A stretch of DNA of 64,000 nt from an uncultured Clostridia bacterium (GCA_944350115.1 CALVNZ010000001.1:221378-285377); one strand, 5' to 3'. Positions 14,411-54,226 are shown, counted from the first letter of the stretch. The notes: a model not told the origin generated them from the sequence alone. Program-made: numbers and translations.

Positions 14411-14722
14411 TTGACTTTTAATTATGTAAATCTGTCGGATATTTAGTTTTTTATCCTTGCAAATTTATTACAAAACATATAATAACACTCTCAAACAAAA
14501 ACAGCAAACACATTTTAGTTGTTTGCTGTTTATAAATATTTAAACACGTTTATTGAATAGTTCAGTCACCCTGTCTTGTCATCCAATTCCCACTAATTAA
14601 TGCCGAAGAAAATTAAAACGGGTTTCCAAATTCAATATTACAACCATGTTTTTACCCAAGATTTTTTATCTTAAGCCAAAACTTTAATTTTTAAAAATAT
14701 TTTGTTAAAATTATGTATTCTT

Positions 14723-15655
14723 TTAATCAAAATCTTTTTTATCAAGTTCTAGGTGCAAATATGAGTTGTTCAAAGAGCTCGCAACACTTCTAAACTTTTT
14801 ATTTGTTTCCCATATATTTTTTAGTTCATCAAAGTTCTCGTCAACGTTTTGCATAAGTTTTGCAAGACGATCTAATTCTTTTAAAGTTGTTTTTTTAAGC
14901 TTGCTAAGATCATCTTGACATTCCCACAAAAACACCGGCAAAGTAACATAGTTGATTTCATCATGAAAAAGCGCATGAAAATCCATCAAAAGACTCCATG
15001 CAAAAGTTGCGTCCCCAAAATGTTTTGTCCCATTAAGATAAGTTTCTTTATTTTCAAGTTTATTTTTTCGCATCAAAAGCCATGCATCGGCAGCCCAAAT
15101 AAATGCATGCTTAGGGAAATTGCAAACATTAAACTTTTTGCTTTTTATGTTGGCTTGAGAATCCACATTGACCCATTTATTAAAGTTTTTGTCATAATAT
15201 TGAACAATCCAATGGTCCACAACCCTATCATCATAAATATACGGAGCAAACCCGCTTCTACATCTACAAGGGATTCCTTTTGCTTTTAAAATAGATGCAT
15301 AAAGCACTGACACATATCTACAAGTTATAATCAATTTTTTATTTGGGTCTTGACTATTTTCAAGAAACGGGTTTTTACTTCCGTTGAGTCTAATTAATTC
15401 AGCCGTCATTGCTGGTGCAGTTAAAAGAACATCATCTAAACATCTATAATTTTGCCATTTATATTTCAAGTTTATTTTGTTATCGTTCTTCGATAAAAAA
15501 GAACGATATAAAGACATTTTGTGAATATGCTGTTTGTTAACAATTTCTCTTAGTTCATACAAATCGTCTGGCAAAGATTTATATAAATCTTGGTAAGGCC
15601 CAGCATTTGTATACATGCCGGTTTCTAAATAATGTTCAAGTATTTTTTTATCCAT
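14723..15655 (-). CDS. Transglutaminase-like cysteine peptidase superfamily protein (paralog 2)
   Basis: TCRYVSVLYASILKAKGIPCRCRSGFAPYIYDD..VDHWIVQYY...WVNVDSQ. Collinear similarity to 10777-11643. Confidence 0.65.
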   Translation of the reverse strand: MDKKILEHYLETGMYTNAGPYQDLYKSLPDDLYELREIVNKQHIHKMSLYRSFLSKNDNKINLKYKWQNYRCLDDVLLTAPAMTAELIRLNGSKNPFLENSQDPNKKLIITCRYVSVLYASILKAKGIPCRCRSGFAPYIYDDRVVDHWIVQYYDKNFNKWVNVDSQANIKSKKFNVCNFPKHAFIWAADAWLLMRKNKLENKETYLNGTKHFGDATFAWSLLMDFHALFHDEINYVTLPVFLWECQDDLSKLKKTTLKELDRLAKLMQNVDENFDELKNIWETNKKFRSVASSLNNSYLHLELDKKDFD

Positions 15656-15913
15656 TTCTTTTGCAACCTTTTATAAAACAAAATTTCGAAATCATTGTAT
15701 GAAAACTAAAAAACATTGTCAAGCAAATTTAATACTAACAAAACTTTTAATTTTCACAAAATAGAAAAAAATTTTATAAACCATTATTTTTTTATCAAGC
15801 GAGCAAAATTTCCTGAATATAAAAAAACTTGATTTAAGTTTTAATAAACACACAAAAACAAAAATTGTTATTTAGGTTAAAATAGCATTTTTATAATTTC
15901 AAAATTTAATTTT

Positions 15914-16537
15914 TTATCTTTCTAGTGCAATGCACAATTCGTCCATCATTTTGTTATGAGCTTTTGTGTCTTGTCTTTTCCCCAAAACGAGTCCGCGAAA
16001 GTAAGGCACAAAAACGTTTTTACCTCCCACAGGATGAGACAATTGTATTTTTTGGGAAGTGTAAGACCTTTCAATATGCTTGCTTGTTGGGCCAACTAAA
16101 ACCCACTCGCCATTAAAATAACATTCACAAAAGCTATGACCAAAGTGTCTATCGCAATCTTTACTATTTTTTAATTTTTGCAACCAATCATATTCTGCTG
16201 TGTGCAATAGAGTCGTTGGTATGTTCAATTGTCGCGCAAAAGTCGCATATAGAATCGCAAAGTCGGTGCAACCGCTTGCCTTTTTGCTTTCCCAAATTTC
16301 TTGAGCTGTTCGCATAAATTTTAACTTTTGAATTTCTTTATCGGCACAATATTTTACATTCGCATGAATCCATAAATATATGCTTTCCAAAAAATGAGCG
16401 CTTTTTTCATCCTTATGTTTGTGCTTTAAATCCGGCATTACTTTTTCATAAACAAATTCTTTTGATAAAAAAGGTTGGGTTAATGCCCCACTTTGAAGAT
16501 ATAAAGCAACATCTTCTGTTTTGTTTAATTTTTCCAT
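15914..16537 (-). CDS. Transglutaminase-like domain protein (divergent third member)
   Basis: GCTDFAILYATFARQLNIPTTLLH ... HSFCECYFNGEWVLVGPT. Cys and His motifs are present, but Gly sits where the usual DPT Asp is expected. Confidence 0.5.
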   Translation of the reverse strand: MEKLNKTEDVALYLQSGALTQPFLSKEFVYEKVMPDLKHKHKDEKSAHFLESIYLWIHANVKYCADKEIQKLKFMRTAQEIWESKKASGCTDFAILYATFARQLNIPTTLLHTAEYDWLQKLKNSKDCDRHFGHSFCECYFNGEWVLVGPTSKHIERSYTSQKIQLSHPVGGKNVFVPYFRGLVLGKRQDTKAHNKMMDELCIALER

Positions 16538-16657
16538 TCGTTATTCTCCTGATTGAGACTTCAGGCTATTTTAACATTAAAATTACGTAAATATGTTTTT
16601 ATTTTCAATAGAACAAAAAAAACTGACAAAAACAGAATGTGTTCTTATCAGTTTCTC

Positions 16658-16669
16658 TTGGCGGAAAGA
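16658..16669. repeat. Left att-like direct repeat (displaced tRNA-Ser 3'-end remnant)
   Basis: TTGGCGGAAAGA, 11/12 identical to 23655-23666. On the minus strand it is followed by a stem (AAACTGA...TCAGTTT) plus a T-run that could be the native tRNA terminator. Confidence 0.5.
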
Positions 16670-16732
16670 CCGATAACCAATCCTAACATTCACACATATG
16701 TTGGGAGTGGATGGATAAAATTTGTGAGTTAT

Positions 16733-17725
16733 TTAAAAAGGTAAATAATCATCGTCTTTTTCATTGTTTCCTTGTAATTGAGAAAGTAAATTTTTACATT
16801 GAGCTAATAACATATCATACGATAAAATTTGTATGTTATTTAATCTACTATTTAGTGAGTGTAAAGATTTTATCATTTCGGGTGTATAATTATTTGTTCT
16901 ACCTATGATAATGATTGATTTAGGATTATACCCCTTTATTTCCTCATGTTTATGTAAACCTCTTTCTGCCACTTCATCAAATATTTCTGCATAATTTACT
17001 ACTTGACTTATCGCCATAGCAGCTTCTTCGGCAAAGTAATAGTTATTATGAGAAGCGTCATACTTTAAAATCTGTGCTGATGGTTTTTTAAATTCAACTA
17101 TATCTCTAAAATCATTTACAGCATTTTTTAGTAACGCATCAACTTTTTCTGCATTAGAAATTGTATGTATTTCTTCAGTTAAAACATAGTAGTTGCCATA
17201 TGCCCAAGTGTTTTCTTTACACCAATTTTCAAAAGGTTTTTCTTTATCAGGACTAGTTTCAAGTAAATTTTCAAATTCTACTATTGCTTTTTCGATCTCA
17301 GTTATTTTTATGGCATTTTTTAAGTTAGAAATGCTTTGTTTATCAAACTCCCCACTTTTAAACAATTCACATAAATCATCACTTTTTAATAATTGAGTAA
17401 GAATTTTTGATTTCTGGCTGGTGTTCTTGGAAATAATAATTGTATCCAAATCTTTGCTTTGTAGTTCTGTTGTGGTTTGAATAAAATCATATAGGTTTTC
17501 AATTTTATCAGAATAGATATTCCAATTTCCAGAACTAACAACATTAAAATTTCCAGAATAGTCTTTTTCTAGTAATTCTAATTTATAATATTGTTCATCG
17601 TCTTTTGTATTATGATGTACATAAAGTGGTGTTAATTTTATTCTCCTTGTTTTTGTGCAGTATATTATAAGTGCTTCAGATTTTTTTATACTTTCATTTG
17701 ATGTTAGAACTTTTTTGCTCATCAA
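16733..17725 (-). CDS. Shedu-like (DUF4263) PD-(D/E)xK nuclease, anti-phage defence candidate
   Basis: C-terminal half: FENWCKENTWAYGNYY...VDALLKNAVNDFRDIVEFKKP (D...ExK) ... KSIIIIGRTNNYTPEMIKSLHSLNSRLNNIQILSYDMLL. This matches my recollection of the SduA/DUF4263 layout. Confidence 0.6.
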   Translation of the reverse strand: MMSKKVLTSNESIKKSEALIIYCTKTRRIKLTPLYVHHNTKDDEQYYKLELLEKDYSGNFNVVSSGNWNIYSDKIENLYDFIQTTTELQSKDLDTIIISKNTSQKSKILTQLLKSDDLCELFKSGEFDKQSISNLKNAIKITEIEKAIVEFENLLETSPDKEKPFENWCKENTWAYGNYYVLTEEIHTISNAEKVDALLKNAVNDFRDIVEFKKPSAQILKYDASHNNYYFAEEAAMAISQVVNYAEIFDEVAERGLHKHEEIKGYNPKSIIIIGRTNNYTPEMIKSLHSLNSRLNNIQILSYDMLLAQCKNLLSQLQGNNEKDDDYLPF

Positions 17726-17785
17726 TTTCTCCTTAAAACTAGTTCTAGTATATCATATTTTATTTGAGATTTAAAGTCTTGTATT

Positions 17786-17822
17786 AAAAAAGAAGAAGTA
17801 TATTTCAACTTCTTCTCTTTTT
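17786..17822. terminator. Bidirectional Rho-independent terminator
   Basis: Stem AGAAGAAGT(17791-17799)/ACTTCTTCT(17808-17816) between an A-run and a T-run. Separates the 79-aa ORF from the Shedu-like gene. Confidence 0.65.
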
Positions 17823-17825
17823 GCT

Positions 17826-18065
17826 TTATTGATTGTTTTGCAAATGAGTATAAACTGCATTTGCTGATAGGGTTGAAAAGTTACCATTTGTTTCGGCAAA
17901 GGTTTTTAAATCATGAGCAAGAAGAAAAGATATTTTCTCTATCTGCTTTGAGTTTAAATTGACTTTACCTAATTTTAGTTCGTTTGAATTAAAATCAAAA
18001 ACAGCAGTGTTTTCATCTATATCTTTACAATCAATAAAACATTGATTGTTATTCGTTTTTCTCAT
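17826..18065 (-). CDS. Hypothetical 79-aa protein
   Basis: ORF only. No convincing Shine-Dalgarno and no recognisable motif. Confidence 0.3.
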   Translation of the reverse strand: MRKTNNNQCFIDCKDIDENTAVFDFNSNELKLGKVNLNSKQIEKISFLLAHDLKTFAETNGNFSTLSANAVYTHLQNNQ

Positions 18066-18163
18066 AATTACTTACTAAAAAGCGAATAACACCGAAAAAC
18101 ACATGGACTATTTAAAGTCCATAGTTATTATAACATATTTCTTTCCAATTTTCTATATTTTTG

Positions 18164-18320
18164 ACAAAAAAAGACAAGTGGGTATCCCACTTGGTCTAAT
18201 AAGGGGAAATGACTCAAAAGTGAAACTTTGGCTTTTTAGGGGTGAATCATCAGAAAGGCTTATTATATAAGGTTTCTTCACCCCTAAAAAACGATTTTGA
18301 GTCTATTTCCTTATCCTGCT
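18164..18320 (-). ncRNA. Candidate structured small RNA or leader (long imperfect hairpin followed by a strong terminator)
   Basis: Outer arms GACTCAAAA(18211-18219)/TTTTGAGTC(18295-18303). Inner 14-bp arms TTTTTAGGGGTGAA(18233-18246)/TTCACCCCTAAAAA(18277-18290). On the minus strand this is followed by stem GACCAAGTGGG/CCCACTTGTC(18173-18196) plus T7. A second minus-strand terminator-like hairpin lies at 18103-18122. The 5' end and promoter are not defined. Confidence 0.25.
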
Positions 18321-18345
18321 TCTAATTATTTTTATAAAAAAATTC

Positions 18346-18383
18346 AAAAAATAGCGGATTTTTTAATCCAATTATGATATAAT
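18346..18383 (+). promoter_or_regulatory. Promoter of the methyltransferase operon, with a cassette-specific upstream motif
   Basis: AAAAATAGCGGA, then 19 nt, then TATAATGG, with TG at -15/-14 (TGATATAAT, 18375-18383). RBS AAGGAG lies before ATG 18412. Same architecture as 22082-22118. Confidence 0.5.
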
Positions 18384-18411
18384 GGTTTTAGATTTTAAGG
18401 AGTGATGTTTA

Positions 18412-19464
18412 ATGGATAAATACAAAGTTGTAGATTTGTTTTGTGGTATAGGAGGGTTTTCTTATGGCTTTGAAATGACAAATAAATTCGATGTCGTTTT
18501 AGGTGCAGATATATGGGGAACAGCTCTTAATACTTTCAAGGAAAATCATAAAAATACAGAATTGATTAATGAAGATTTAACGAAACTCCCTGATGATTTT
18601 TGGTATAAATATAAAAATAAAATTGATGTTGTTATTGCTGGTCCCCCTTGTCAAGGATTTAGTATGATAGGACAAAGAAAAAAAGATGACAAAAGAAACT
18701 CTTTATTTGAAGAAGTTGTAAGAGTTACTAAAATTATTCGACCTAAGATAGTTGTTATTGAAAATGTTGTAGGATTACTATCAATGACAACAAAAGACGG
18801 AAAAGATGTAAAAGAATTAATCAAAGAAGAATTTGAGAACCTTAAATATTCAGTTAAGTATAGAGTTCTCAATGCTGCAGATTATGGTGTTCCTCAGCAA
18901 AGAAAAAGGGTTATTTTTATAATAACTCAGAATGTATATAATGTTGATTATCCTAAACCAAAATTAAAAGAAGAAGATTATGTTACTGTTGGAGAAGCTT
19001 TGGGGAACGTTGATCCTAATGGGGATTATTATCTTATTCCTACTTGCGATTTTCAAAAGTTGATGGCAGGACGAAAAGATATTTGTAATCATATTAGAAG
19101 AAAATCAAATGAACTTGTTACTAAAAGAATGTCTTTTATTCCCCAAGGTGGGAATTGGCAGAATATTCCAAAGGAATTAGGAACTGGTGGTGGAACTTAT
19201 AGTAATGCTTATCGAAGATTAGATAATAATAAACCATCAATAACTATAAAGCATGCAGCAAAAGCAATGATAATACATCCAACAGAAAACCGAATTTTAA
19301 CCGTTAGAGAATGTGCGAGATTACAATCGTTTGATGATAATTTTGTTCTAACAGGGAATAATTCTGATCAGCATCAACAACTAGCTAATGCTGTTCCTCC
19401 ATTACTTGGAAAAGCAATTGCAGAAGAAATTTACAAAGGATTGGTAAATAAAAACAATGTATAA
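18412..19464 (+). CDS. DNA (cytosine-5)-methyltransferase 1
   Basis: Motif I DLFCGIGGFS, motif IV PPCQGFS, ENVVGL, QQRKRVIF, TVRECARLQSFDD, ANAVPP. Confidence 0.95.
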   Translation: MDKYKVVDLFCGIGGFSYGFEMTNKFDVVLGADIWGTALNTFKENHKNTELINEDLTKLPDDFWYKYKNKIDVVIAGPPCQGFSMIGQRKKDDKRNSLFEEVVRVTKIIRPKIVVIENVVGLLSMTTKDGKDVKELIKEEFENLKYSVKYRVLNAADYGVPQQRKRVIFIITQNVYNVDYPKPKLKEEDYVTVGEALGNVDPNGDYYLIPTCDFQKLMAGRKDICNHIRRKSNELVTKRMSFIPQGGNWQNIPKELGTGGGTYSNAYRRLDNNKPSITIKHAAKAMIIHPTENRILTVRECARLQSFDDNFVLTGNNSDQHQQLANAVPPLLGKAIAEEIYKGLVNKNNV

Positions 19465-20455
19465 ACAATTAACCTTATGGGATACGGCGAATTTATGCAG
19501 TGACGATAAGTTAAAGTTTATTGACCTATTTTGTGGAATGGGAGGCTTTCGTATTGCATTTGAAAAAAATGATTGTAAATGTGTTTTTAGCTCAGACATA
19601 GATTCTTTTGCACAAAAAACATATTTTACGAATTTTAATGAAATTCCTTTTGGAGATATAACAAAAATTAATGAAAAAGATATACCCGACCATGACATAT
19701 TATGTGCAGGATTTCCTTGTCAATCTTTTTCTATTGCAGGTAAACGTTTGGGTTTTAATGACACTCGAGGAACATTGTTTTTTGATGTTGCAAGAATAAT
19801 AAAAGAAAAAAGGCCAAAAGCCTTTATTCTTGAAAATGTTAAAGGGATAACTAATCATGATAATGGGAATACATTACAAACTATTTTAAATACGTTAAAT
19901 GATCTAAACTATGATGTTAATTACAAGATATTAAATGCAAAAGATTATAACGTGCCACAAAATAGAGAACGCTGGTATTGTATTGGATTTAGAAGAGATT
20001 TAAATATTGAAATTGAAAAGTTTTGTTTTCCAAAAGCGCAGCCATTAAATAATATATTAGAAAATCTAATAGAGAAATCTGCTGATAGTGCTTATAAAAT
20101 ATCAGATACCTGTTATAGCAATATAAAAAAATATGTAAAAGAGAAATCCATAAATGTAAAAAATGATACATTAGCTTATGAAGTAAGAGCTTCTAGATGT
20201 CAATTTAAAAACGACGGCATATCACCTTGTTTAACGGCCAAAATGGGTACAGGTGGAAATAATGTTCCTATTGTTATAAAACAAAAAAGAAGATTAACAG
20301 AGAAAGAATGCTTAAGAATTATGGGATATCCAGAAACCTATAAAATTAATAAAGGAGCACAAACATATAAGCAAATTGGTAATAGTGTTGTTGTTCCAAT
20401 AATAACTTTACTTGCCACAGAAATGGTTAAATTTTTAAAAAAAGAAGATTGTTAA
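19457..20455 (+). CDS. DNA (cytosine-5)-methyltransferase 2
   Basis: DLFCGMGGFR, FPCQSFSIAG, ENVKGI, QNRERWY, TEKECLRIMGYP, GNSVVVP. Overlaps MTase 1 by 8 nt. Confidence 0.95.
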   Translation: MYKQLTLWDTANLCSDDKLKFIDLFCGMGGFRIAFEKNDCKCVFSSDIDSFAQKTYFTNFNEIPFGDITKINEKDIPDHDILCAGFPCQSFSIAGKRLGFNDTRGTLFFDVARIIKEKRPKAFILENVKGITNHDNGNTLQTILNTLNDLNYDVNYKILNAKDYNVPQNRERWYCIGFRRDLNIEIEKFCFPKAQPLNNILENLIEKSADSAYKISDTCYSNIKKYVKEKSINVKNDTLAYEVRASRCQFKNDGISPCLTAKMGTGGNNVPIVIKQKRRLTEKECLRIMGYPETYKINKGAQTYKQIGNSVVVPIITLLATEMVKFLKKEDC

Positions 20456-21252
20456 TCTTCTTTTTTTGGTTTTAATACGATAGTATAATCCCCATGACTT
20501 CTTCCAGAGCCAGTTGTTACTGTAAAAGGAATATAACTCAGTCTCTCTAATTTTCCGTGTGAAAAAATATACCACGCACAATAAGGCTCTTGATAAATAG
20601 GATAACCGTTAAAAATTATTTGTTTTAATTCTTCAGAATTGTTTATTAACTCTTCAATTTTTCTATTACAATATGTCTTTATTTTAGAACAAATATATTT
20701 ATTGCTAATAAAATCTTCATGATTAATATTAAAATTTGAAAAATATTTTATCATTAGTTCTTCAGATGTGTTCCATCCTTTTAATAAATCGGTATTTTTT
20801 ATAAGTTCCTCATTTTTTGAGCAAAATAAGCTTGCTCCAGCACCTAATTCATAATTACCAAATAAAGAATGAAAACTATTAGGACCAGTTTTTAAAATTT
20901 GATATTTATCAGAATCAGACATTTTTACAGAAATTCCAGATTTCTCAATGATCTTATGATTAAGATTTTTAATATTATATTCATTAAGATAGTAATCATT
21001 TTCTTTTAAAACATTTTTTATTTGTGTGTCTTCTGAATAAACAACATAACAATCCGAACGCGTTTTTGTTATTTTATTGCTTAATTTGGAAAATTGATTA
21101 GTTGTTACTCTAACCATGTAAATATTGTCTAAATTATAATTAAGTTTATCCGTTAAAATAGAAAAAATTGTATTTTGTTTATTTTTATTAAACGATCTAA
21201 CAAATTCTATCTCTTGAATATCTCCTTCATAAGTGCCTCTATTTATTGCCAT
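20452..21252 (-). CDS. Putative restriction endonuclease subunit B
   Basis: 266-aa ORF convergent with the MTases (4-nt stop overlap) and overlapping subunit A by 14 nt. Weak D...(S/E)xK-like strings (SDCYVVYSEDTQIK, GISVK). The call rests mainly on context. Confidence 0.45.
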   Translation of the reverse strand: MAINRGTYEGDIQEIEFVRSFNKNKQNTIFSILTDKLNYNLDNIYMVRVTTNQFSKLSNKITKTRSDCYVVYSEDTQIKNVLKENDYYLNEYNIKNLNHKIIEKSGISVKMSDSDKYQILKTGPNSFHSLFGNYELGAGASLFCSKNEELIKNTDLLKGWNTSEELMIKYFSNFNINHEDFISNKYICSKIKTYCNRKIEELINNSEELKQIIFNGYPIYQEPYCAWYIFSHGKLERLSYIPFTVTTGSGRSHGDYTIVLKPKKED

Positions 21253-22021
21253 TATTTTTTCTTCCTTTTGTAATTAGTTTTATACAATTTGTCATGGACC
21301 CCCATTTGACCTGCATAATATAACGTCGTTCTGGATGAACTACTGATCTAAATTGGTCTCTTGTCCATGGTTGATAAGTAAGTTGCGAAAATTGAATACC
21401 TGTCATTTCATTAATATTTGTTGTTGTTATCAAATAATTAATAATTTCTTCACGATTTGCATAAACTCCATCTTCAATTGAACCGTGATAAATAGCATCA
21501 ACAATAATGGGCTTTTGAAAAACACCAACAAAAAGAATCCTATTTAATATCTTTATTAAATTCTTTGGTAAATTTAATTCTTTATTAACAGAAAATATTT
21601 TATCAGAATATTTAGATTTTATTTCTGCTGTTGAAAATCTTGTTTTCCCATTTCCTTCTAATGTATCATCTCCATAATGATAAAATCTTAAATTATTTAT
21701 ATTATCATTAGATATTTTGATTTGTTTAAGAAAATCACAAAAATCATTTAAAGGTTCTTGATGCACACTATTTCCAGATCCTTCTTTAATACTTATATAT
21801 TTTATTTCATTTCCAATTTTAATCCAAATATCTGGTTTAGGATTTTTGCCCTCTATTTTTTTTAATATATCAGATGAAATTATTTCATCACTAGATATAT
21901 GTCTATTAAAGACAAAGGATATAAAGTTTTGAAAATTTGAATTTAATTCACAAAATTTTTTATTATTTAAATAATTAGACATATAAATTTCATTAGTAAA
22001 ACCATGACTATTACTACTCAT
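21239..22021 (-). CDS. Putative restriction endonuclease subunit A
   Basis: 260-aa ORF. KPDIWIKIGNEIKYISIK gives PD-x8-ExK. The general layout reminds me of small MspI/HpaII-like type II enzymes. Context with two MTases. Confidence 0.5.
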   Translation of the reverse strand: MSSNSHGFTNEIYMSNYLNNKKFCELNSNFQNFISFVFNRHISSDEIISSDILKKIEGKNPKPDIWIKIGNEIKYISIKEGSGNSVHQEPLNDFCDFLKQIKISNDNINNLRFYHYGDDTLEGNGKTRFSTAEIKSKYSDKIFSVNKELNLPKNLIKILNRILFVGVFQKPIIVDAIYHGSIEDGVYANREEIINYLITTTNINEMTGIQFSQLTYQPWTRDQFRSVVHPERRYIMQVKWGSMTNCIKLITKGRKNNGNK

Positions 22022-22081
22022 AAAACAATTCTCCTATTTGAATTATAGCAAAAATTTGATTTATTTAGCAATATTTTTAGC

Positions 22082-22118
22082 AAAAATAGCGGACAAACTC
22101 AAATTATAGTGTTATAAT
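22082..22118 (+). promoter_or_regulatory. Promoter of the recombinase gene, with the same cassette-specific motif
   Basis: AAAAATAGCGGA(22082-22093), then 19 nt, then TATAATGG(22113-22120), with TG at 22110-22111. RBS AAGGAG lies before ATG 22140. TAGCAAAAAT is repeated at 22046 and 22079. Confidence 0.5.
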
Positions 22119-22139
22119 GGGAATAAGGAGAAAAATTTT

Positions 22140-23711
22140 ATGAACAAAGCTGTTATATATGCAAGATATTCAAGTGATAGTCAAACAGAACAAAGCATTG
22201 ATGGGCAACTCAGAGTTTGCAAAGAATATGCTGAAAGAAATGGTTTGATTGTTGTTAATGAATACATTGACAGGGCTATGACAGGAATAAATGATAAGCG
22301 GCCAGCACTTCAACAAATGCTTTATGACAGCAAAAACAAAAGCTTTGATTTTGTTTTAGTATATAAGTTAGATAGATTTTCAAGATCAAGGTATGACAGC
22401 TCTGTTAATCGTGCAATATTACTTAAAAATGGTGTTAAGTTGATTTCAGCAACTGAAAATATTTCAGACGCACCAGAAGGAATTTTGCTCGATAGTGTGC
22501 TTGTTGGACTTGCAGAGTATTATTCTGTTGAACTATCTCAAAAAGTTAAACGTGGGCTAAAAGAAAGCAGAATAAAAGGACTCTTTACAGGTGGCAGAAC
22601 TCCTTATGGATACAATGTTGTTGACAAGAAAGTTAGTGCTAATGAAGAACAAGCAAACATTGTTAAATTGATGTTTAATGAGTACATAAGTGGCAAATGT
22701 ATTAAAGACATTGTAAAGATTTTACATAACAAAGGAATAAAGAACGCATACGGCAAAGATTGGACAATAAACTCTGTTTCAAGAATATTAAGAAATGAAA
22801 ACTACAAAGGTTGCGTATATGCAGATGGTACTGTTTACACAAATATTTTTCCTGCAATAATAAGTGAACAACTTTTTGATGAAGTAAATGAAAAATTAAA
22901 AATCTCAAAAAGAACCTCTGCTCATCACAAAACAGAAATTAATTATCTTTTAAGTGGCAAGTTAATTTGTGGCAAATGTGGTAGTTTGATGACTGGAGAT
23001 AGTGGCAAAGGTAAACTTGGCACAATTTACAATTATTATAAATGCTTTACAAAAAAGAAAAATAAAACTAAATGCGATAAGAAATCTGTTTCAAAAAATT
23101 ATATAGAAGAAATAGTTTTGTCTGCAACGCAAGAATTTATGCAACACACGAACTTAAAAAGTCTAAGTAAAGTATTGGCTGATACATACAACAAAAGTAT
23201 TGAAAAAGACACAATTTTAGAAAGTCTAAATAAAGAACTTCAAGACAATAACAAAAAGTTAAAGAACATTTTAACTGCTCTTGAAAATGGAATATTTAAC
23301 GAAACAACAAACGATAGAATGAAAGAACTTGAAGTAAGAATAAGAGAAATAAAAGAAAAAATTGCTAGCAGACAAATGCTAACAATTAAACCATTAAGTG
23401 AAGAACTTGTATATGAATATTTGAAATCTTTTAAAGATTTAAATTATTCTCTTGAAAATGCAAAACAAAGACTGATTGATATGTTTGTAAATAGAGTTGT
23501 TTTATATGATGACCATTGCGAAATTTACTTTAATATAACAAGTGATAAAAGCAAGCAATTAAAATTAAGTGAAAAGCCAGATATATCACAAGAAATTGAA
23601 TACATAGAAAATAAAAAGGAGCAATCAAACCCAAAGGGTTCGGATTGCTCGCAATTGGCGGGAAGAGAGGGATTCGAACCCTCGCGCCGGTCACCCGACC
23701 TACAGCCTTAG
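22140..23711 (+). CDS. Large serine recombinase (integrase)
   Basis: Resolvase N-terminal domain AVIYARYSSDSQ...DGQ...YKLDRFSRS. Recombinase domain, Cys-rich zinc ribbon (CGKCGS...YYKC...KC) and coiled coil. The last 18 codons (LAGREGFEPSRRSPDLQP) are antisense to tRNA-Ser. Confidence 0.9.
   Translation: MNKAVIYARYSSDSQTEQSIDGQLRVCKEYAERNGLIVVNEYIDRAMTGINDKRPALQQMLYDSKNKSFDFVLVYKLDRFSRSRYDSSVNRAILLKNGVKLISATENISDAPEGILLDSVLVGLAEYYSVELSQKVKRGLKESRIKGLFTGGRTPYGYNVVDKKVSANEEQANIVKLMFNEYISGKCIKDIVKILHNKGIKNAYGKDWTINSVSRILRNENYKGCVYADGTVYTNIFPAIISEQLFDEVNEKLKISKRTSAHHKTEINYLLSGKLICGKCGSLMTGDSGKGKLGTIYNYYKCFTKKKNKTKCDKKSVSKNYIEEIVLSATQEFMQHTNLKSLSKVLADTYNKSIEKDTILESLNKELQDNNKKLKNILTALENGIFNETTNDRMKELEVRIREIKEKIASRQMLTIKPLSEELVYEYLKSFKDLNYSLENAKQRLIDMFVNRVVLYDDHCEIYFNITSDKSKQLKLSEKPDISQEIEYIENKKEQSNPKGSDCSQLAGREGFEPSRRSPDLQP
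23655..23666. repeat. Right att-like direct repeat within the tRNA-Ser 3' end
   Basis: TTGGCGGGAAGA, the reverse complement of the acceptor-stem 3' strand plus GCCA(A). Confidence 0.5.
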
Positions 23712-23746
23712 CAGGGCCGCCTCTTCGACCACTTGAGTATCTCCCC
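23656..23746 (-). tRNA. tRNA-Ser (anticodon GCU), CCA encoded
   Basis: Hand fold: acceptor GGGGAGA/TCTTCCC; anticodon stem CGGCC/GGCTG with loop CTGCTAA; long variable arm TAGGTCGGGTGACCGGCGC; T-arm GAGGG-TTCGAAT-CCCTC; discriminator G; CCA. Confidence 0.9.
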
Positions 23747-23771: not shown

Positions 23772-23801
23772 ATTCTATCATACACTTTCGTTTTTTGTCA
23801 A
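23772..23801 (-). promoter_or_regulatory. Probable tRNA-Ser promoter
   Basis: Minus strand TTGACA, 18 nt, TAGAAT, about 25 nt upstream of the tRNA 5' end. Confidence 0.45.

Positions 23802-54151: not shown

Positions 54152-54226
<75 letters not shown>

Follow-up and report, generated by a model that had tools for sequence, protein, structure and literature searches.

A probable integrative defence island at the 3′ end of tRNA-Ser(GCU) in an uncultured Clostridia bacterium, bounded by a large serine recombinase gene that crosses the attachment site

How a group of restriction and other defence genes came to lie against an intact tRNA-Ser(GCU) gene, and why the recombinase gene beside them reads into that tRNA, is the question raised by a 64-kb stretch of DNA from an uncultured Clostridia bacterium (GCA_944350115.1 CALVNZ010000001.1:221378-285377), referred to here in its full length as the window. 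Positions 16659-23661 are very probably a 7.0-kb integrative defence island that was put into the extreme 3′ end of the tRNA gene by the large serine recombinase (LSR) encoded at its own right end. Sequence comparison with related loci demonstrates the insertion, its boundaries and a presence/absence polymorphism, and the features of the element and its attachment (att) sites are listed in Table 1.

Two 12-bp repeats, TTGGCGGAAAGA on the left and TTGGCGGGAAGA on the right, mark the ends of this segment and are the sole two matches to the 12-mer in the window. By itself the 12-mer is weakly significant, with at least two matches in 9 of 100 shuffles, and the case for insertion therefore rests on comparative data. 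An empty site was found among relatives of the neighbouring dUTPase, where one sister lineage contains both states: in L102 the site is empty, with tRNA-Ser(GCU) joined straight to a terminator homologous to window 16614-16657, and in L100, L101 and L103 it is occupied, with the recombinase 3′ end joined to the tRNA. The right flanks of L102 and of these three occupied loci are identical base for base. In a four-way alignment, the left half of attB (L102) is homologous to the left flank of the window, AAAACTGA(T/C)AAAAAC...TTATCAGTTTC(A/T)C, and its right half equals attR, with attB and attR parting immediately left of TTGGCGG. The hairpin that directly follows the tRNA in L102 (-19.6 kcal/mol, z = -5.8) is homologous to the terminator that now lies left of the island, and the flank carrying this terminator is also present in L093, a locus with the same site and junction as the window and about 95% identical flanks.

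Related elements at other sites place the same limits on the island. The LSR gene of L008 is 93% identical to that of the window at the nucleotide level, and this identity ends at 23661, the last base of TGGCGG, beyond which L008 has a different right junction; the LSR of L091 is as similar as that of L008, but lies at tRNA-Ser(UGA). At the opposite end, about ten elements (L008, L013, L014, L086, L089, L090, L091 and L093 among them) have kept the left arm next to DNA that is unrelated, in many cases a terminator hairpin and in some another recombinase gene, met at its 3′ end. Every related attL site departs from host DNA directly to the left of TGGCGG. The crossover zone is confined to TGGCGG, the complement of tRNA nt 71-76 (CC, G73, CCA). 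An earlier note on this DNA had taken an 11/12 repeat as the boundary; both copies are present as it described, but the five further bases of that repeat reflect half-site resemblance and not a duplicated target. On the remaining anatomy of the locus the note has held up, in that ARAGORN and the ORF, pattern and terminator scans agree with its placing of the repeats, the tRNA, the recombinase ORF and the terminator, insertion at the tRNA 3′ end within these boundaries is borne out by L102 and the conserved left arms, and its view that the original terminator of the tRNA lies in the left flank fits the homologous hairpin of L102. The empty site that it predicted, tRNA-Ser followed by the left flank, was found in the sister lineage and not in the window's own species.

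Table 1. Coordinates of the island, its att sites and the adjoining tRNA gene in the window
Feature	Position	Strand	Evidence or detail
Displaced native tRNA-Ser terminator, host-side B arm of attL	16614-16660	-	Terminator scan: 20-pair stem and T-run
Left 12-bp repeat	16658-16669; core TGGCGG 16659-16664		Pattern match, TTGGCGGAAAGA
P′ arm, element left end	16665-16706		Motif CAATCCTAAC at 16678-16687, 13 nt after core
LSR coding continuation, excised (attP) form	16665-16744	+	Tail ERPITNPNIHTYVGSGWIKFVSYLKR, then stop
Cargo slot 2: Shedu nuclease SduA	16733-17725	-	Pfam SduA_C PF14082 6.7e-18; PADLOC PDLC00402 3e-70, residues 8-325
Backbone module: 79-aa gene and upstream region	17814-18334	-	Gene 17826-18065; promoter-like and hairpin sites upstream
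Slot 1, part 1: two C5 cytosine DNA methyltransferases	18412-19464, 19457-20455	+	Pfam DNA_methylase 2e-73, 3e-101; PADLOC MTase_II
Slot 1, part 2: one split type II restriction endonuclease gene	20452-22021	-	N-half 21239-22021, C-half 20452-21252
Putative promoter-like site upstream of LSR gene	22090-22118	+	Consensus scan, 10/12 matches, extended TG
LSR gene, 523 aa in integrated form	22140-23711	+	Resolvase, Recombinase and Zn_ribbon_recom domains
Putative replacement intrinsic terminator of tRNA	23611-23650; hairpin 23650-23619, U-run 23618-23611	-	Antisense to LSR codons ~491-504 (KKEQSNPKGSDCS)
P arm of attP, element side of attR	23638-23655		Motif GTTCGGATTG at 23638-23647, 8 nt before core
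Right 12-bp repeat	23655-23666; core TGGCGG 23656-23661		TTGGCGGGAAGA; core is tRNA nt 76-71
tRNA-Ser(GCU), intact	23656-23746	-	ARAGORN
B′ half-site, tRNA acceptor and T-arm DNA	23662-23680		ATTCGAACC at 23672-23680
tRNA-gene promoter-like site	23772-23801	-	TTGACA, 18-nt spacer, TAGAAT, extended TG; consensus scan, 11/12 matches, best score

The recombinase has the features expected of its class. Its catalytic domain matches PF00239 (2.9e-27, residues 4-147), with further matches to PF07508 (2.7e-20) and PF13408 (1.3e-14), and the gene is intact with all catalytic-domain invariants kept; Y7, A8, R9, S11, S12 and Q15 are invariant among 35 homologues. Similarity extends to the catalytic domain of TP901-1 (2e-17), to the C-terminal domain structure of the A118 integrase, which aligns to residues 151-456, and to the phrog_95 integrase (1.7e-116), and the AlphaFold2 (AF2) model contains long helices at 358-382 and 388-414 that form a predicted coiled coil. 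Membership of the Ccr recombinases of staphylococcal cassette chromosome (SCC) elements was considered and rejected, NCBIfam Ccr models giving 69-123 bits overall against cut-offs of 700-900 (CcrB 123 against 900, CcrA 112 against 700). As the earlier note had described, the frame spans the junction and has no stop inside the element: the stop codon, TAG, lies 56 nt inside the tRNA, and residues 506-523 are antisense tRNA.

This arrangement recurs across the recombinase family. Homologues of the LSR number in the thousands in gut metagenomes, and the C-terminal tail reads as an antisense T-arm in 68 of the 120 best clusters (for example ..LAEREGFEPS.., ..LVPKAGLEPA.. and ..GGxGIRTPV..). Among 78 evaluable loci from GTDB genomes, all of uncultured Clostridia and relatives, the LSR ORF ends inside an antisense tRNA in 20 and comes to within 300 nt of an antisense tRNA 3′ end in 11 more (31/78), whereas a sense tRNA was found at the LSR 3′ end in none of the 78; the background tRNA density is one per 21 kb. 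These counts show, for the genomes compared, a family-wide link of such LSR genes with antisense tRNA 3′ ends. Targets across the related loci comprise four tRNA-Ser isoacceptors, tRNA-Leu, tRNA-Met and tRNA-Asn, the stop codon supplied by the antisense tRNA falls 2-3 codons past the core in tRNA-Ser(UGA) and 18 past the core in the window, and the delimited related elements measure 3.7-10 kb. The window also contains a second tRNA, tRNA-Asn(GTT) at 54152-54226 on the minus strand, which is of the kind targeted by the relative L054 and has no recombinase-sized ORF on its 3′ side.

The DNA on either side of the core suggests how the tRNA end may be recognized. At the left end, the pattern TGGCGG-N13-CAATCCTAAC, then ..TATGTTGG.., recurs at the far ends of related elements, and CAATCCTAAC is the reverse complement of the P-arm motif GTTCGGATTG with one mismatch. 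Three clades use different motifs in the same layout, a 10-mer that ends 8 nt before the core and, at the opposite end of the element, its reverse complement 13 nt past the core: the P-arm and P′-arm motifs are, respectively, GTTCGGATTG and CAATCCTAAC in the window clade, GTTCGGATTA and GTATCCGAAC in the tRNA-Leu clade, and GTTCAAACGA and GCGTTTGAAC in L019. The P and P′ motifs covary across the three clades at fixed spacing, and in these alignments attP is shown to be an inverted repeat of a T-arm-like motif centred on the last six bases of the tRNA. The distance from the outer motif end to the last core base is 23 nt in P and P′ and 18 nt for ATTCGAACC in the tRNA, an offset of 5 bp. Structures of phiC31 integrase place the motif of the zinc-ribbon domain (ZD) 5 bp further inward in attB than in attP (10.1101/2025.05.02.651858), and the two distances match this ZD shift. 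The LSRs would then read T-arm DNA as the outer half-site motif, and the element would carry two mimics of it.

In the mechanism that we propose, one LSR dimer would bind attP, GTTCGGATTG-N8-TGGCGG-N13-CAATCCTAAC, and a second would bind attB, whose B′ half is tRNA acceptor and T-arm DNA with ATTCGAACC 5 bp nearer the centre. A 2-bp staggered exchange inside TGGCGG would follow, so that the tRNA would stay intact. Insertion would part the tRNA from its own terminator, and the P arm, lying in the last ~15 LSR codons, would supply a new one on the tRNA strand. Because the LSR ORF crosses the crossover, its stop codon would come from the antisense tRNA in the integrated form and from the P′ arm in the excised form.

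The proposed replacement terminator has clear counterparts in related elements. Downstream of the tRNA, a 14-pair hairpin followed by CUUUUUAU folds as RNA at -25.4 kcal/mol (z = -4.5), and equivalent hairpins are present in all 24 related elements (median z -5.2), 22 of which have at least five U in the next 8 nt. Stem sequences and stem lengths differ between clades and RNAalifold gave no consensus for them, each of the 24 terminators having been folded as a single sequence. The antisense hairpin and U-run are present, and the folding predicts that they act as a terminator. The peptide KKEQ..GSDC at the end of the LSR is best explained by constraints acting on DNA and RNA, its lysines deriving from the U-run and GSDC from the stem, including the P-arm motif GGTTCGGATTGC.

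The cargo of the island occupies two slots that flank a 79-aa gene and is exchanged between family members. Slot 1, between the 79-aa gene and the LSR, holds restriction-modification genes: two C5 methyltransferases (MTases) and a restriction endonuclease (REase) in the window, DpnII-like systems in L090, L091 and L089, and others in L013, L086 and L019. Slot 2, on the P′-arm side of the 79-aa gene, holds SduA in the window, HATPase_c_3 in L093, an AAA_15 ATPase in L090 and L091, a reverse transcriptase in L092, SIR2-HerA in L086, and a helix-turn-helix (HTH) protein with an M78 peptidase in L008. On its domain content the putative nuclease SduA belongs to Shedu, which is defined by the DUF4263/SduA_C nuclease domain, and Pfam and PADLOC matches uphold the Shedu-like nuclease and the two C5 MTases of the earlier note. 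Its two REase subunits, in contrast, are the N- and C-halves of one frameshift-split gene, since one and the same PADLOC profile is matched at positions 7-261 by one ORF and at 263-527 by the other. Plasmid homologues of this REase are single chains of about 520 aa, and in the window the gene is divided into two overlapping ORFs at an A6 run (about 21239-21262). The same split in other assemblies of the element indicates that it is fixed, and the restriction-modification system thus consists of two intact C5 MTases beside a split REase, which could reflect decay to an inactive enzyme, phase variation or a two-chain enzyme.

The 79-aa gene and its upstream region form the backbone between the slots. 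This module is 92-97% identical at the nucleotide level in L008 and L090-L093, and in a comparison of window 17727-18334 with L090 8733-9332 and L091 8733-9332 the figure for L090 is 92-99%, beside an LSR that is only ~71% identical. Homologues of the 79-aa protein occur in seven related loci, and more than 100 near-identical variants are found in metagenomes. The protein has no match in Pfam, PHROG, NCBIfam or PADLOC, and its AF2 model (pLDDT 71) has no fold match in the PDB. It was considered as an excision factor and rejected, as 92-99% conservation beside LSRs of ~71% identity argues against a co-evolving partner.

A frame that crosses the crossover also raises the question of whether its exchangeable end has a function. 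At the left copy of the repeat the frame stays open for AERPITNPNIHTYVGSGWIKFVSYLKR, 27 codons after Leu, as far as the stop at 16742-16744. The earlier note had proposed that the integrated and circular forms encode different tails; both tails are real, but no evidence was found that they matter, and three tests lend no support to a function. Exchange affects the LSR only from residue 506, some 40 residues past its last folded or homologous portion, since homology ends at residue 456 for the A118 integrase structure and at residue 474 for the phage integrase profile, well before the junction near residue 505 around which the note's comparison turned. For the excised form as reconstructed, the AF2 model has good confidence up to about residue 465 and a pLDDT below 50 for 466-533. 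No coding signature was detected on the P′-encoded tail, whose codon-position and synonymous/non-synonymous counts are the same as in other frames, and hhalign comparison with the native C-termini of distant LSRs lost significance beyond the IYFN strand. These three results, and the point at which homology to solved and phage integrases ends, speak against the view that the tail swap is a functional switch, in which a conserved P′-encoded peptide would be needed for integration or would tune it and the antisense-tRNA tail would behave differently, as with IntP and IntX of Mx8. The integrated tail does so too, being only 2-3 residues past the core in tRNA-Ser(UGA) elements, which makes its content highly variable. 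The view has points in its favour, namely that no clade has a stop in the ~40 poorly conserved residues, the terminator or the crossover, with at least two different frames in use, that the eight attP-form tails that were reconstructed all measure 25-33 codons, and that those of the Ser clade share N-P-N..Y-[VI]-G-x-[GKR]-W-[IV]-K, with a similar, loose pattern in the Leu clade; natural proteins with excised-type tails also exist (P0059 and P0104, the former in a phage-like context). Taken together, we regard such a switch as quite unlikely.

Several observations weigh against an island inserted by its own LSR and against the att-site rules given above, and recombination by the window LSR is deduced from sequence. 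For the window's own species, searches with the exact proteins of the transglutaminase-like neighbour, the LSR and the dUTPase led to occupied contigs only, with no empty site among them, and a scan of JGI metagenomes for the attB junction pattern gave no match. The circular junction that the earlier note had expected, sought as a degenerate attP pattern, was absent from IMG/VR and JGI contigs, P|P′ junctions being seen only in tandem arrays or a phage-like contig, and no excision factor was identified for the element. At the host-side B arm there is no clear conserved motif at the B-type distance, so that three half-sites out of four obey the motif rule; the centre of symmetry coincides with one base instead of lying between two, so that no single dinucleotide is marked as the crossover. 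The P-arm motif could, moreover, be conserved only as part of the terminator stem and not for LSR binding, although the P′ copy of the motif lies outside the terminator hairpin and argues against this. Two further sources were set aside: the P0244 lineage was rejected as an empty site, its tRNA not being adjacent to the dUTPase neighbourhood in the same arrangement, and small 'Bacteriophage sp.' records with related LSRs were uninformative, being linear fragments without terminal repeats or tRNAs.

The absence of a circle junction from IMG/VR and JGI contigs and the occupation of every contig of the window's own species would also be expected if the window copy were a fixed, immobile resident of the tRNA-Ser locus, that is, a hotspot for defence genes where cargo is replaced through homologous recombination, with the conserved P′ arm, 79-aa module and LSR gene as the regions of homology, instead of by excision and reintegration. 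L093 fits such a history well, having the same junction and flank with a different slot-2 gene and identity that resumes exactly at the P′ arm and the 79-aa module, as does the contrast in L090 between the module and the LSR. We nevertheless consider a fixed copy unlikely, in view of an LSR that retains all of its catalytic-domain invariants, near-identical LSRs at three different junctions (window, L091 and L008) and a sister lineage polymorphic for presence and absence; the two modes are also not exclusive. That the repeats are coincidental, and the LSR and defence genes ordinary chromosomal neighbours of the tRNA, could draw on the weak significance of the 12-mer, but four findings refute it: the empty site, P′ arms that are conserved, a link to tRNA genes throughout the family, and different cargo at identical junctions. 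Its probability is negligible, and an integrative island inserted by its own LSR is the reading retained here.

Some related loci depart from a single insertion per tRNA. Head-to-tail stacks occur in L008 (4801-11522 and 11523 onward), L086 (3390) and L089 (9410), in which the P arm of one LSR joins the P′ arm of the next element and the upstream LSR thereby gains a different tail. Stacking is not predicted by canonical attP x attB recombination, and the tandem stacks suggest that attR-like sites can be targets. At L088 (3718-5319), a 45%-identical LSR with an excised-type tail (..SNPNPNIFVAAKYWGIWI..) lies among phage-like genes encoding a LexA-like S24 peptidase, an RNase_T exonuclease, HTH proteins and a 974-aa protein; from this context, some family members appear to be phage integrases.

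The host flank to the left of the island is itself variable between the window and L093. Comparison of window 14551-15939 and 16197-16470 with L093 3195-3454 shows that this ~95% identical strain lacks most of a 310-aa ORF and part of the transglutaminase-like gene. The transglutaminase-like gene is cargo in L016, and the left flank of the window may be an older decayed island. In L014 (6412-6450), a terminator is followed by TGGCGGAGACGGAGATTCG, which resembles a truncated tRNA 3′ fragment and lies ~180 nt left of the genuine P′ arm; it is probably what remains of a previous insertion. Next to the tRNA terminator of the empty site (L102 1-60, minus strand), a gene starts with MALPGYQEFMFPILKLL, which we take to resemble the N-terminus of an Mrr-type restriction protein.

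Among known systems, the window LSR shares its domain order (resolvase, recombinase, zinc ribbon, predicted coiled coil) with the A118/LI, TP901-1, phiC31 and Bxb1 integrases, and phage LSRs likewise use short, pseudo-palindromic att sites with the outer motif 5 bp further out in attP. It differs from them in that its target is a tRNA 3′ end and not a protein-coding gene or intergenic site, and in that attP lies inside the integrase ORF and doubles as a putative antisense terminator; protein identity to solved LSRs is low, with E-values of 1e-10 to 1e-17 over individual domains. The tRNA islands of tyrosine integrases (Islander signature; P4-like, Mx8, mv4) also combine an integrase beside attP with insertion at a tRNA 3′ end, restoration of the gene, a displaced 3′ fragment at the far end and tandem arrays, however the enzyme of the window is a serine recombinase and the shared core is 6-7 bp as against tens of bp, the displaced tRNA 3′ fragment at the far end of the window element being only 6-12 nt. 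SCCmec (CcrA/B/C) is similarly an LSR-driven cargo island with short direct repeats at the 3′ end of a housekeeping gene and no transfer genes of its own; the window element has a single recombinase and not a pair, a tRNA and not rlmH as its target, and none of the ccr-complex accessory genes. Tycheposons of Prochlorococcus are likewise small cargo islands at tRNA genes, in a different phylum and mostly with tyrosine recombinases, the preprint reporting an LSR instead in 27 of 937 elements; the accessible part of its text contains no description of attP in an LSR ORF or of a replacement terminator.

An ORF that crosses attP has precedents among tyrosine integrases. In IntP/IntX of Mx8 and in the SSV-type 'suicidal' integrases the recombination site lies inside the ORF and integration alters the 3′ end of the gene (PMC4383910, PMC6070905, PMC7253208). 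The exchanged part includes folded or functional sequence in Mx8 and SSV, whereas in the window it is apparently an unstructured tail beyond ~505 only. Serine integrases, for their part, have been stated not to use tRNA genes (PMC4383910), and a review of mobilizable elements describes serine-integrase elements as disrupting dispensable protein genes. The earlier note's impression that such an element had not been described thus needs narrowing, since an ORF across attP is known from Mx8 and SSV; for a serine recombinase with attP in its ORF at a tRNA gene, or for the antisense terminator, no paper was found in a literature search of incomplete coverage. A bolder proposal, which we consider quite unlikely, is that of a widespread, apparently undescribed clade of T-arm-reading LSRs with attP and terminator in their own frame, in which the exchanged tail would be an integration-state sensor that tunes stability or directionality and resident attR sites would be legitimate targets, giving rise to tandem stacks.

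Insertion at tRNA genes is classically the work of tyrosine integrases, and the family described here is a large clade of serine recombinases of gut bacteria that uses such targets. The logic of its sites is readable in sequence, as a T-arm-like motif in three half-sites with a 5-bp offset between attP and attB, and would provide natural short att sites for many orthogonal LSRs, enzymes that are favoured in genome engineering. The element also appears to replace the terminator that its insertion displaces, with a copy encoded antisense within its own gene. Finally, with Shedu, SIR2-HerA, reverse transcriptase, ATPases, a PycTM-domain protein and restriction-modification systems among the defence cargo of the family, these islands constitute a compact two-slot defence carrier in poorly studied gut Clostridia, which bears on the turnover of defence genes in these bacteria.

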